A stretch of 64,000 nt of DNA from an uncultured virus (IMG/VR IMGVR_UViG_3300036970_000191) (lineage: Duplodnaviria; Heunggongvirae; Uroviricota; Caudoviricetes). Location: the IMG/VR virus record IMGVR_UViG_3300036970_000191; one strand, given 5' to 3'. Below are positions 7,282 to 48,681 of this stretch, piece by piece (positions within the stretch are counted from its first letter, which is position 1; each line of letters starts with the position of its first letter). Below the pieces are notes generated by a model that made no database searches, was not told the origin of the DNA, and worked only from the letters and a program-made list of their open reading frames with translations. A program made the position numbers and the translations under genes.

Positions 7282-7424
7282 GACGATGTGCCCTTTGGGT
7301 TGATGTTAAAAAACGCTCGACATATGATGAACGGGCTATTGATTGCTGTGTAAAAATATACAGGGTTGAGTGTTAACTTAGCCCTATGTTTTAAGACCTA
7401 AGGGGTCGTTATCAAAGGGGTCTT

Positions 7425-8575: not shown

Positions 8576-9070
8576 ATGTCAAATGCTGTCATTGCCAACG
8601 TCCTGCTTGACGTACTGGCCAACAATCGCCGTATCGACTTCATGGACATGCTCATGCACCATGTTCGTCCATACGTGTTTAAACCGTTTCTTCTGGGCGA
8701 TGAACCGATCCATGGACTCAAGCCATATCTGGTCGGCTCAATGGCCCGTAAGGGCGCTCGTGCACGCTCGATTTATCGACTGCCCTCCATTGTACTGCCC
8801 ACCTTTGATTACGACGTGGTCAATCAAAGGGATTCTGCATACACCAGACAAGTGGTCTCGATGTGCTGGAAAGTTATCACGTATTTGAAGTCGCAGGGTT
8901 TTGGTGATCAATACGAGACTGTAATTATTGATTACCGAAAGAATCGTTATGTACTGATCTCGATCGAACCTGAGTTTGCCAGCGAGATCATCAAGGCCAT
9001 CGGTGGATCACCCTCAACAAATGTGGTGAGTCACCGTATCTTTAACCACACATCCAAAAAGGAGGAATGA
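8576..9070 (+). CDS. Hypothetical protein
   Basis: AAGGAG RBS; stop overlaps the next start. Confidence 0.7.
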   Translation: MSNAVIANVLLDVLANNRRIDFMDMLMHHVRPYVFKPFLLGDEPIHGLKPYLVGSMARKGARARSIYRLPSIVLPTFDYDVVNQRDSAYTRQVVSMCWKVITYLKSQGFGDQYETVIIDYRKNRYVLISIEPEFASEIIKAIGGSPSTNVVSHRIFNHTSKKEE

Positions 9071-9432
9071 TGAAATCGCCGATCTTTCCTGTGCCTGGGT
9101 GCCAGAATCGTCGGTCATTGGTGATTAAGCCTGACGGTACACCAAGACAGATTCAACTGGCACACGACCCTATCACTGGAGAAGATGTACATTATCAGAG
9201 CATGGAGCCTGGAGACACGTTTGTCGAAAGGCTTGTCTTTGACGATTACCCTTTTCCTGTTCTTAGGGCAAGACGTTTTACGGGTCATCCAAAGGAGCGC
9301 CCGTTTGAAATCCCTCAGCTTTATGCCGAGGACATGACGAGTTTCCTTAACGACTGCGCCAGCGCAGTCACTGCTTTCATCTACGCGCGTTCAAACGCGA
9401 TTTTGTCATTGGGAGAGAAACATGTGGCCTGA
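9067..9432 (+). CDS. Hypothetical protein
   Basis: AAGGAGG RBS; operon context. Confidence 0.7.
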   Translation: MMKSPIFPVPGCQNRRSLVIKPDGTPRQIQLAHDPITGEDVHYQSMEPGDTFVERLVFDDYPFPVLRARRFTGHPKERPFEIPQLYAEDMTSFLNDCASAVTAFIYARSNAILSLGEKHVA

Positions 9433-9739
9433 CATCAATGTTTACTGGGATAAGGAACCCGTGGAATTGGTTTTTCCTGAACGCTATGCTTTTGACAGTC
9501 TTCAAGGTGGAGAAATCCCCATGAACGTCAAGATTAAGCGCTCTGAACACCATCGCTTCTTGATGGTGAACAAGACCATGTTCAGACGTGGCCTTATTGT
9601 GGGTTCAACCTACATTCACCCCAACTACGAAGGTGACCTTTCCATCTATGTCCGCAACATCACAGCGCACATGGTTGAAGTCGATAAGGGCGAAGTGTTT
9701 GCCCACATTGTCACTGTGAAAAACATGCCAGATGCATAA
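9422..9739 (+). CDS. Degenerate dUTPase-fold protein
   Basis: GLIVGSTYIHPNYEGDLSIYVRN and VDKGEVFAHIV resemble trimeric dUTPase motifs 3 and 4; no motif 5. Confidence 0.6.
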   Translation: MWPDINVYWDKEPVELVFPERYAFDSLQGGEIPMNVKIKRSEHHRFLMVNKTMFRRGLIVGSTYIHPNYEGDLSIYVRNITAHMVEVDKGEVFAHIVTVKNMPDA

Positions 9740-9748
9740 ACCTTAACC

Positions 9749-9778
9749 CCCCTGATGGCCCGTACGGGCCATCAGGGG
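9749..9778. terminator. Perfect palindrome / terminator
   Basis: CCCCTGATGGCCCG-TA-CGGGCCATCAGGGG; T tract at about 9797-9804. Confidence 0.7.
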
Positions 9779-9802
9779 AATCTCGGTCTCATCACCTTTT
9801 TT

Positions 9803-10434
9803 TTATGCCAAAGGGCATAAACCCCAAACCCCACGACTAACGCTAGATCACGCTGGGTTTTAACCCATGAACCAGTCGAAAGGACCTGCGGTGAAAGCGC
9901 TGCATCATAGCTAACTTTCTGCAAGGATCACGGTCGATAGCGGCTCGTGTCGCTAGGGGGGTTTGGTTGCAGACCCCAGGAGAAGGGGTAGCGATAAACC
10001 TGCGGAGCTAAGGGCCCTACAGGCGCTCGAGTGTCCCCTATCCCACGCAGATGCAGTGCCTTTGCGATCAACCAAGTGGCAGCCTAGGTAGTGGTGGCGG
10101 CATGGTTGATCACGGGGAAGGCAGGGGTCGGGGTGTTTCACTCTCGCAAACCATAGGGGTAATCCTGTATTTTTTTACGGGGTCGGCCGCCATGAAGATC
10201 ACACGAGCACCCCCACCCTTCGGGAAACACCACCAGACGAACACGTAAAACTTCTGGTTTCCCTGGGGTGCAAGTTCCTGGTCGTTACGATCGCTGGATT
10301 CCAACCCTTCGGGGTAATCCCGATGGATTTTTCTTCCCCCTTGGGATTTTTGTTTGTTTTTTGATCAAAAATCGGGGTTAAAACGCCCGGTTGACCAGAG
10401 CCCCAAAGCGTCGGTCAAACCGAGGCGTTTTTTT
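9803..10434 (+). ncRNA. Candidate large structured non-coding RNA (about 630 nt)
   Basis: No credible ORF; many nested stems, long-range loop pairings, a C-UUCG-G tetraloop and a 3' hairpin with U tract. Confidence 0.5.
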
Positions 10435-10451
10435 GTTTCCCTTCCTTATGT

Positions 10452-10704
10452 CGCGTGCATGTGTGCACGCACGTTATTTACATTTGCGCGCATGCGCGCG
10501 CGTTTTTTAATTTATTTATTACGAAGTAATAAATAAATAAATTTATTAAAATAATAAATAAAATATAAAATTCTTACGAAGTAAGAATTAAATATATAAA
10601 AAAATAAATAAAAATATTTATAATTCTTACGAAGTAAGAATTAAATATAACGCGTGTGCGCGTGTGTGTGCGTGTACGTGCGTAAGCGCGCGCGTGCGCA
10701 CGCG
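10452..10704. other. Origin-like element: AT-rich core with three C-GAA-G hairpins flanked by alternating purine-pyrimidine tracts
   Basis: Palindromes at 10510-10538, 10569-10589 and 10621-10643; RY tracts at 10452-10474, 10485-10503, 10650-10684 and 10686-10704. The structure is directly seen; the function is inferred. Confidence 0.55.
10569..10649 (+). repeat. 28-nt direct repeat AATTCTTACGAAGTAAGAATTAAATATA x2
   Basis: Copies at 10569-10596 and 10622-10649. Confidence 0.9.
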
Positions 10705-10818
10705 GCATAAGGAAGGGGATCATGAGTCCGATGGGGTCATGGACCAGAAAATCCACCCTGTAAAAAAATACAGCGAATCCCTGTTATTTTGTGAGTCCAG
10801 CAACATCACAACCGCATC

Positions 10819-11643
10819 ATGAAAATCATTCGAGTCAAGACCAAGAACCAACGTGTCCTGTCCGAGCTTGGACAAGCCGTGTCCAAGTGGGCCCGTGTCG
10901 TACCCACGAACGTGTATTCTTTGGAATCCCAGCAACTGCAAGCCGTCGGAGCCATGCCTCGGTCTGACATCGTCGTGATCGACCCAAGAACCATCCGCCA
11001 GTCTGAACTGGCCAGCATCGTCGCCTCTGGCGAAGACGAGAACGCAGGACACGACCTGCTCGTCGTGAAGCACCCTGACGAATCCACCACCCAACGGATC
11101 GATCGCGAAGAACTCGAGGGCGTGCTCAAGGACTCTGGGTTCAACGTGTTCAACACGACCCAGGATGTCGTGAAGTACGTTGAGAACAAACGCGATGAGT
11201 TTCAGGACGAAACCTCTGGCAGCGTGGACACGGGTATTTCCAAGTCCCAAGCGGCCACGGAGTCTCATGGGTCTACCGAAGATGACCCTGAGTTCATCGA
11301 GAAGGTTTCCCGGATCGTTCATGAAACCTTGCGGTTTTACTGCCGGTTCATCGGGGATTACACCCTCCTGAGTTGGGATCGCTGTCCCGAGGATTCTCGT
11401 CAGAGCACGCTCGATGGCGTCTCGTATCACCTGCAAAACCCTAAATCCACCCCAGCGCAAAGCCACGAACGCTGGATGGCATTTAAAAAATCATCGGGTT
11501 GGTCCTATGGCAGTACCAAGGACGTGGTGAATAAACAACACCCGTGCATGGTGCCCTATGACGATCTTCCTGAGCAACAAAAACTCAAGGACATGCTGTT
11601 TTGCGTCCTGGTCAATCTGATTGCCCGTGAGTTTAAACCCTGA
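10819..11643 (+). CDS. RyR-domain protein
   Basis: C-terminal HERWMAFKKSSGWSYG...KQHPCMVPYDDLPEQQKLKD is the RyR repeat signature. Confidence 0.8.
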   Translation: MKIIRVKTKNQRVLSELGQAVSKWARVVPTNVYSLESQQLQAVGAMPRSDIVVIDPRTIRQSELASIVASGEDENAGHDLLVVKHPDESTTQRIDREELEGVLKDSGFNVFNTTQDVVKYVENKRDEFQDETSGSVDTGISKSQAATESHGSTEDDPEFIEKVSRIVHETLRFYCRFIGDYTLLSWDRCPEDSRQSTLDGVSYHLQNPKSTPAQSHERWMAFKKSSGWSYGSTKDVVNKQHPCMVPYDDLPEQQKLKDMLFCVLVNLIAREFKP

Positions 11644-48570: not shown

Positions 48571-48649
48571 TTAAAAACCATACATCACTCTTTACCACGA
48601 GGCTTTTTAGCCCGTGGTAAAGAGTGTATATATTTTCCTATCTAACTTA

Positions 48650-48681
48650 CATTTTTTTACAGTTATATACTACTCAATTGA
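48650..48681 (+). promoter_or_regulatory. Putative phage RNAP (early-type) promoter
   Basis: 22-nt identity with the 21042-21063 motif. Confidence 0.65.

Follow-up and report, generated by a model that had tools for sequence, protein, structure and literature searches.

The present analysis concerns a gene-free gap of 1079 nt (positions 9740–10818) in a 64,000-nt stretch of DNA, here called the window, from an uncultured virus of the class Caudoviricetes (IMG/VR record IMGVR_UViG_3300036970_000191). The gap is the largest of the window, roughly three times the size of the next largest (349 nt), and it is flanked by two genes that both lie on the + strand, at 9422–9739 (encoding a protein of 105 amino acids (aa) with a weak dUTPase/dCTP-deaminase likeness) and at 10819–11643 (encoding an RyR-domain protein). 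Positions 9803–10434, below called the RNA candidate, had in an initial annotation been proposed to encode one large structured noncoding RNA (ncRNA) of about 630 nt with pseudoknots. Analyzing the gap as a whole, we found the features given below with positions, strand and description, where z is the fold energy relative to dinucleotide shuffles and X2 and X12 are two natural variants of the locus.

9749–9778, + strand: perfect palindromic hairpin of 30 nt with 15-nt arms (100%); local z −4.8 on + and −5.3 on −
9797–9820, + strand: run of eight T followed by ATGC, then a hairpin TTATGCC-AAAG-GGCATAA; pairing probability 0.92
9800–9969, no strand assigned: invariant block, with no change in X2 or X12 among the differences listed
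9891–10065, + strand: branched 5′ domain, whose closing helix in the minimum free energy fold has 15 bp (9891–9906/10050–10065, with three G–U pairs); probability 0.85
9958–9977, + strand: hairpin GGGGTTTG/CAGACCCC; pairing probability 0.96
10066–10111, + strand: hairpin with a 9-bp base, GATCAACCA/TGGTTGATC; probability 1.0; insertions or deletions (indels) in X12 at 10071, 10087 and 10090
10147–10183, − strand: copy of a motif module with core palindrome CTGTA-T7-TACGG (10165–10180), inverted partner of 10755–10773
10184–10378, + strand: 3′ part without excess folding; z −0.53 on + and −1.21 on −
10380–10434, + strand: strong intrinsic terminator with seven T directly after a long stem; local z −5.6 for 10360–10519
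10434–10722, no strand assigned: palindrome of 289 bp with outer arms of 25 nt (10434–10458/10698–10722) that are 88% complementary
10519–10529, 10574–10584 and 10627–10637 (within 10513–10647), + strand: three hairpins with core TTAC-GAA-GTAA in repeat units of 53–55 nt
10740–10790, + strand: copy of the motif module with core 10758–10773 (CTGTAAAAAAATACAG); the RyR-domain gene (10819) begins 45 nt further on

No credible open reading frame (ORF) was found in the gap, in agreement with the initial annotation. The longest ORF comprises 65 aa, and none of nine small ORFs is present in a collection of 15 billion proteins, whereas the exact 105-aa protein of the upstream flank is found there, from a contig of 72.6 kb. 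Single-base indels seen in natural variants, at 9972, 10039, 10071, 10087 and 10090, furthermore affect every candidate ORF. A − strand ORF of 50 aa (9772–9924) with a hydrophobic stretch was considered and rejected, as it is missing from the protein collection and has its tail altered by a change at 9790 and a deletion at 9797. The RNA candidate had also been described as GC-rich, and its GC content is indeed above the mean of the window, but only mildly so (54% versus 50%).

With regard to folding of the RNA candidate as one molecule, all 10 quoted pairs of arms or loops, as well as an ACCC-TTCG-GGGT hairpin, were found where they had been annotated, with one of the pairs (GGGGTTTG/CAGACCCC) including one G–T and being an imperfect complement. 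Inverted repeats were commoner than chance, with self-complementary 6-, 7- and 8-mers numbering 98, 34 and 12 against 61.8 ± 8.9, 15.9 ± 4.7 and 4.1 ± 2.7, respectively, in 300 dinucleotide shuffles. Fold energies were compared with 20 such shuffles per strand for the full length, 40 for the core and 100 for the 5′ and 3′ parts. The full 632 nt gave a z of −3.29 on + and −3.43 on −, values so close that the fold signal is not strand-specific, and the full-length signal owes much to the two terminal hairpins. Upon removal of these, z for the core (9822–10375) was −1.60 on +, which 2 of 40 shuffles equalled, and −3.53 on −, which none of 40 did; the 5′ part (9821–10164) gave −2.04 on + (2 of 100 as good) and −2.81 on −; for the 3′ part, 28 of 100 shuffles were as good on + and 9 of 100 on −. 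The trimmed + strand core was thus little or no better than dinucleotide shuffles and the 3′ third no better, and the initial annotation had itself held that such energies would speak against its RNA. In local scans the strong signals fell on the hairpin at 9749–9778, on the 3′ terminator and most of all on the palindrome past 10434, while interior windows had z between −0.9 and −3.4. The strand preference was split, with 9886–10115 being 13.6 kcal/mol more stable on + than on − (−97.3 versus −83.7 kcal/mol; 11 versus 7 G–U pairs) and 10184–10434 being the more stable on −.

The individual stems fared unevenly. Among the nine nested stems proposed, four had pairing probabilities of at least 0.6 in the full-length + strand ensemble, namely CTGCAT/ATGCAG (0.85), GGGGTTTG/CAGACCCC (0.96), GATCAACCA/TGGTTGATC (1.0) and GGGAAAC/GTTTCCC (0.63), and TAGCG/CGCTA reached 0.42; the other four (GTGAAA/TTTCAC, TGCCTT/AAGGCA, GCACCCC/GGGGTGC and ACCC/GGGT) stayed at or below 0.01, and several stems are mutually exclusive. 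The 15-bp helix 9891–9906/10050–10065 excludes TGCCTT/AAGGCA and takes the place of GTGAAA/TTTCAC, and the cUUCGg hairpin at 10304–10315 is in competition with a hairpin at 10309–10323. For the two long-range pseudoknots the complements are exact, at 9943–9950/10201–10208 (8 nt) and 10095–10101/10186–10192 (7 nt). By simple arithmetic, however, a given 8-mer would find a complement among about 600 positions with p ≈ 0.01 and a given 7-mer with p ≈ 0.04, and because these words were picked among a dozen loops, both pairs are within chance. A perfect 10-nt complement, 9857–9866/10375–10384 (GTTTTAACCC/GGGTTAAAAC, 508 nt apart), could pair the ends of the candidate and is not clearly beyond chance. 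Searches for known RNAs agreed with the view that no tRNA, tmRNA, RNase P, intron or other known family is at hand: ARAGORN found no tRNA or tmRNA gene in the window, and none of the 4227 families of Rfam 15 had a match anywhere in the window at gathering score. At E ≤ 10 there were 30 weak Rfam matches in 9600–10900, none of them within 9803–10290 and seven wholly or partly in 10291–10434, the latter at 13–34 bits against thresholds of 49.5–230.

The 5′ domain, which contains hairpins at 9938–9955, 9958–9977 and 9979–10043, overlaps the part of the gap that stood out through conservation. Comparisons were made with X2 (a DNA contig of 6.6 kb) and X12 (probably DNA), for which 40 of 89 differences were listed, apparently the first by position and reaching to 9985. 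X2 differed at 34 of 340 positions in 9400–9739 (10%), had 14 substitutions and two indels in the 768 nt of 9740–10507 (1.8%) and 10 differences in the 372 nt of 10626–10997 (2.7%). The corresponding values for X12 were 20 differences in 177 nt in 9400–9576 (11%; six of these are outside those listed, probably near the contig end), 27 differences and six gaps in 725 nt in 9733–10457 (3.7%) and four differences in 282 nt in 10716–10997 (1.4%). Within the gap, only the block at 9800–9969 was conspicuous, having no change in either variant among the differences listed, with about three (X2) and about six (X12) expected at their own gap rates. The listed X2 changes cluster at 9970–9985, and at least about 20 of the 27 X12 changes of 9733–10457 lie beyond 9985 (26 if none is at the contig ends). 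The only helix seen to vary among the differences listed was the hairpin at 9958–9977, where X2 carries three substitutions and one deletion in the 3′ arm, uncompensated and by inspection reducing eight pairs to five. A recombination (mosaic) boundary likely lies at the 3′ end of the 105-aa gene, as judged from these divergences. For the 105-aa protein itself, the 11 members of its cluster form two allele groups that are about 90% identical.

To the left of the 5′ domain, the hairpin at 9749–9778 is situated just past the stop of the 105-aa gene and is terminator-like, but with its T run 19 nt away. The TATG at 9804 had been taken as a start mark; TATG, the late-promoter consensus of phiKZ type, occurs 221 times in the window (both strands) and is by itself no mark. 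The longer form, a T run followed by TATGC, is promoter-like and has intergenic copies only at 9797 and 13062, the latter 29 nt before a gene. An 18-nt direct repeat (9734–9751/9815–9832, GCATAAACC..AACCCC, 83%) flanks the hairpin and the run of eight T, and looks like what the insertion of an 81-nt terminator cassette would leave behind; copy 1 overlaps the 105-aa gene at its stop codon.

The 5′ part and the 3′ part are separated by a copy of a near-palindromic AT-rich motif, ACCC[CT]GTA-W7-TACAG, which interrupts the proposed 630-nt RNA at 10165–10183. This motif has three copies in the 64 kb, or four in a looser form, versus 0.57 ± 0.67 expected. Its CTGTA-W7-TACAG cores, often with ACCC in front, are found at 7348–7363, 10165–10180, 10758–10773 and 48647–48662, each of them intergenic. 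The operon-first genes at 10819 (+), about 7282 (−) and 48753 (+) are each preceded by one copy, at a distance of 45, 63 and 90 nt, respectively, the start at about 7282 being our own reading of the gene map. The motif is probably a promoter element or operator of the phage, with a direction left ambiguous by the palindromic core. The copies at 10165–10183 and 10755–10773 form an inverted repeat of 19 nt (18/19, 95%), extending to about 37 nt by our own alignment, and parts of the module recur at 10302–10340. In the variant contigs we saw neither strand switches nor joints, and there was thus no sign of inversion of the segment between 10165–10183 and 10755–10773. The phiKZ middle promoter, characterized as 'TACT preceded by an A-rich repeat' (PMC8244752), resembles the motif in that description. 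Nine nt past the copy at 10165–10183, a mini-ORF (10192–10209) opens ATGAAGATCACACGAG (MKITRA), while the RyR-domain gene opens ATGAAAATCATTCGAG (MKIIRV) at 10819–10836; the two starts are identical in 13 of 18 bases, maybe by chance or as a remnant of a duplicated gene start.

The 3′ end of the RNA candidate was correctly annotated as a hairpin with a U tract, since 10380–10434 has the GC-rich hairpin and following U run of an intrinsic terminator, and a good one, on the + strand. In the 3′ part before it, next to the cUUCGg hairpin, the competing hairpin at 10309–10323 and the T run that follows it make up a weaker terminator-like site (10309–10335) inside the RNA candidate, and another weaker one is located at 10485–10510, just beyond it. 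Among the terminator-like sites of 9000–11500, nine of ten are on the + strand. Seven + strand sites fall within 10309–10510, several being overlapping variants of one hairpin, versus 2.6 ± 2.0 in shuffles, and by inspection no canonical − strand terminator was found.

The most extreme element of the gap is the palindrome at 10434–10722, just outside the RNA candidate. As single-stranded DNA it folds with −81.4 kcal/mol, compared with −40.5 ± 3.7 in shuffles (z −10.93; equalled by none of 200 shuffles). The four longest runs of alternating purines and pyrimidines in the window (35, 23, 19 and 19 nt; the next is 15 nt) all fall in its arms, and its core (10505–10650) has 9% GC, with 32% in the next-lowest 140-nt window. 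The composition of the arms would make them Z-DNA-prone and the element as a whole is predicted to be cruciform-capable. All three TTAC-GAA-GTAA hairpins carry GAA on the + strand, with a period of 53 nt and 2.2 copies. The AT-rich core with its three dyad-symmetric repeats has the form of an origin with iterons and a DNA-unwinding element, and we regard the palindrome as a candidate origin, packaging or protein-binding site. Its length is kept in X2 (118 versus 119 nt between anchors). The sequence GATCACR has four + strand copies in a 360-nt part of the gap (9846–10203; spacings 80, 182 and 89 nt), against a window mean of about 0.3 per kb per strand. A cluster of GATC was considered as an origin mark and rejected, since GATC occurs at 6.7 per kb throughout and other 600-nt windows are richer.

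Similar hairpin arrays were found elsewhere. Two TTAC-GAA-GTAA 11-mers spaced 36–52 nt apart occur in IMG/VR at 15 loci (L019–L033) on 11 contigs, four of which are named giant-virus bins, a count of which part may be chance as tandem repeats are common. In at least six of the 11 contigs the hairpin stem is, by inspection, longer than the 11-mer, and no protein was common to these contigs and the window (ORFs of at least 80 aa). One locus, L024, is 72% identical to 10515–10605 over 100 nt, and its hairpins (e.g. at 600–720) lie in a repeat-rich gap of 530 nt just upstream of a homologue of the terminase small subunit (phrog_4044, E 3e-11). In the 11 unrelated contigs the regions concerned are noncoding and repetitive, and hairpin arrays of this kind thus recur across unrelated viruses in noncoding DNA of the cis-element type.

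As to the source of the DNA, the window encodes a divergent phiKZ-type family-B DNA polymerase (PF20286, E 8e-211), along with a DUF7484 protein and a thymidylate synthase. The polymerase matches 297 phiKZ-like GenBank records, at most with 36.6% identity (Burkholderia phage FLC9), and via this protein only one relative was found in IMG/VR (L001/G001, 35% identity). The sequencing runs that contain the RNA candidate are nearly all wastewater or sludge metagenomes, and roughly 13 DNA runs (X2–X14) contain at least half of it. Judged from this polymerase and these runs, the source is an uncultured, deep-branching, phiKZ-like jumbo phage of the nucleus-forming type. By family assignment, it would have multisubunit polymerases of phiKZ type and no N4-type enzyme. 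Gene order is common to the window and G001 from the DUF7484 gene (14145) rightwards, including the polymerase and 13 further genes, with no synteny to the left of it (the gap, the RyR-domain gene and the thymidylate synthase), which places the gap in a variable region. A collection of 5.8 billion proteins contained a single cluster for the RyR-domain protein (96% identity), and Logan was its only source.

Relatives of the gap itself were not detected. No match was given by blastn of the gap against phages, plasmids and E. coli genomes, nor by the upstream genes against phages; the flanking proteins and an alignment of the 105-aa protein found no relative in IMG/VR or genome contigs; and exact patterns of 22–23 nt had no match in IMG/VR, metagenome contigs or genome contigs. 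A covariance model built from 9886–10066 as a single sequence matched none of five records (G001, FLC9, Noxifer, RTH11 and HPP-Temi) at E ≤ 0.01, the best match being noise (44 nt, 11.6 bits, E 0.83), and no second copy of the modelled segment was seen within the window.

Taking these results together, we tentatively propose, with a probability of roughly 45%, that the gap, where two + strand operons meet, is a control region of composite nature rather than one RNA gene. Transcription of the + strand would leave the upstream operon after its hairpin, or would perhaps start at the T run with TATGC, and would then cross the conserved branched 5′ domain (about 9891–10111) and a loosely structured, faster-changing tail before being ended by the tandem terminators at 10309–10335 and 10380–10434, with the site at 10485–10510 as a third that is terminator-like. 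These terminators on the left would shield the palindrome from + strand transcription, and the next operon would start to the right of the palindrome, behind its own promoter-like motif at 10755–10773. The palindrome would, in such an arrangement, serve at the DNA level as a site for protein binding or unwinding, e.g. as a replication origin or other cis-acting site. Any functional RNA of this locus would possibly be the 5′ domain of about 200–370 nt, and not the whole 630 nt.

Several observations weigh against a composite control region. The gap has diverged about as far (1.8–3.7%) as the stretch and gene downstream of it (1.4–2.7%), so the drop relative to the upstream gene may be a recombination boundary and not selection. 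The trimmed core folds better on the − strand than on the + strand (z −3.53 versus −1.60), and the motif at 10165–10183, being nearly palindromic, would also allow a − strand transcript. For the palindrome, a turn in GC skew near 8–11 kb was tried as an origin mark and rejected, as it tracks gene orientation and does not tie the palindrome to replication. Furthermore, no initiator gene was recognized among the neighbours, whose proteins showed no recognizable family and gave no functional lead, and the largest gaps and most AT-rich spots of G001 have no comparable architecture. RNA libraries did not strengthen the case either. RNA-labelled runs with 12–56% of the sampled words of the RNA candidate numbered six or seven, and contigs were examined from two, X15 and X19, both chosen for containing it; such contigs show neither strand, ends nor level. 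X15 gave contigs over 10236–10441 and 10443–10520 (plus 10626–10649) at a depth of about 4, and X19, a wood-decay sample, a 224-nt contig over 10115–10332 at depth 2 with two differences, in both cases at low depth and maybe from DNA. One X15 contig runs across the strong terminator at 10380–10434, and the contig break at 10441/10443 coincides with the start of the inverted repeat. X19 also has short matches to the alternating GT/GC run, which belong to other sequences. The flanking genes and 9803–10114 are uncovered in both, which carries no weight because the runs were preselected for the RNA candidate, and in all the contigs count neither for nor against transcription.

Two other explanations have to be considered seriously, both of which we hold to be unlikely. 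The gap could give rise to two or more separate small ncRNAs, one from its 5′ side and one + strand RNA of about 150–250 nt from its 3′ side (from about 10190 to the terminator at 10335 or 10434), where the 5′ RNA would be transcribed either on + from about 9804 or on − from the motif at 10183–10165 leftwards to the hairpins at 9749–9820. The match of the motif at 10165–10183 to copies preceding operon-first genes argues for this, as do the − strand fold of the core and the RNA-library contigs, which cover only 10115–10520 of the stretch examined; small intergenic RNAs and RNAs derived from 5′ untranslated regions (5′UTRs) are, moreover, described for phiKZ-like phages (PMC11512511). Yet the ambiguous orientation of the motif, the X19 contig that spans it, the 3′ part, which is structured beyond shuffle level on neither strand, the lack by inspection of a canonical − strand terminator and the silence of the contigs on strand, ends and level all speak against separate RNAs.

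Alternatively, the gap could be a mostly non-functional patchwork, i.e. a recombination junction with duplicated hairpin modules in which only ordinary terminators and the promoter of the next operon work, and in which low divergence would reflect recent ancestry in common with the downstream genes. Such an origin would fit with the repeated modules (10147–10183, 10302–10340, the inverted 10740–10790 and the 18-nt direct repeat 9734/9815), the location outside the synteny with the nearest relative, the divergence similar to that of the downstream gene and the modest energy z-scores. It is rendered doubtful by the 170 nt without a change in X2 and X12 among the differences listed, against about three and six expected, by the palindrome being an extreme outlier in the window and kept at the same length in X2, and by the size of the gap, 1.08 kb, which far exceeds all others (at most 349 nt).

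In a bolder reading, a deep-branching lineage of nucleus-forming jumbo phages would have a new structured RNA, highly conserved and with the 5′ domain (about 9800–10111) as its core, which would be made directly beside an origin-like cruciform or Z-DNA element and work together with it. We consider this quite improbable; if true, the RNA might, for example, act near the origin as a primer or regulator, or serve as a host-factor decoy. Least probable of all, and very unlikely, is the single + strand ncRNA of about 630 nt (9804–10434) of an undescribed class with two long-range pseudoknots, which has in its favour the exact complements, the full-length z of −3.29, the 10-nt complement that could close its ends, the lack of an Rfam match and the + strand terminator at its 3′ end, but which has against it the trimmed + core (z −1.6) and 3′ third (z −0.5), the four of nine stems at probability 0.01 or less with some mutually exclusive, the internal promoter- or operator-like motif and terminator-like site, the uncompensated X2 changes in the hairpin at 9958–9977 and the pseudoknot complements lying within chance by arithmetic.

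Comparing the locus with known systems, the closest likeness is to the small RNAs (sRNAs) of phiKZ-like phages, such as sRNA005 of 201phi2-1 and the phiKZ sRNA upstream of gp182, which are intergenic or 5′UTR-derived (PMC11512511). Like the RNA candidate, these are noncoding, hairpin-rich, bounded by terminators, located between operons of nucleus-forming jumbo phages and conserved by position more than by sequence. They are, however, shorter than 250 nt and defined by mapped 5′ and 3′ ends, compared with a stretch of 630–1080 nt here, and the conserved one precedes a tail gene (PMC11512511), where the next gene here is that of an RyR-domain protein. One predicted phiKZ sRNA of 75 nt was not confirmed by Northern blot (PMC8244752). 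In the passages of the literature on phiKZ-like phages that we consulted, only short sRNAs and no large RNA or replication origin were described.

Other parallels are those of form. GOLLD and ROOL, large structured phage-linked ncRNAs that we assume to be among the Rfam models searched, resemble the RNA candidate in size class (400–800 nt), in their abundance of hairpins, in their association with phages and in lacking an assigned function. Those RNAs are nevertheless defined by strong covariation. The fold energy here is near shuffle level, and there was no Rfam match in 9803–10290 at E ≤ 10. Among phage origins, lambda ori has dyad-symmetric repeats beside an AT-rich unwinding region, and the T7 primary origin and T4 oriF and oriG have promoters beside an AT-rich region. 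The palindrome resembles these in its core of 9% GC, its three dyad-symmetric sites at 53–55 nt and the promoter-like motifs on both sides, but differs in that no initiator gene was recognized nearby and that the + strand terminators would keep transcription coming from the left out of the core; its origin-like features are present in form only. To our knowledge, Z-DNA-prone alternating arms have no counterpart among phage origins. The three hairpins of the palindrome, finally, with stems of 7–9 bp and a GAA triloop closed by C–G, all on one strand, are similar to mini-hairpins with GAA loops of the d(GCGAAGC) type and to the hairpin promoters of the phage N4 virion RNA polymerase, which have stems of 5–7 bp and loops of 3 nt. 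The phage is assigned, by family, polymerases of phiKZ type and not N4 type; the likeness is one of shape only.

The new class of pseudoknotted 630-nt RNA was thus not borne out, and the finding should be seen as a good lead and not as a discovery. Hardly any of the noncoding biology of nucleus-forming jumbo phages has been mapped, and a gene-free region of 1.08 kb that is in part invariant across wastewater variants, among the differences listed, and holds an extreme palindrome gives a concrete place in which to seek a functional RNA or a site for replication origin, packaging or regulation.

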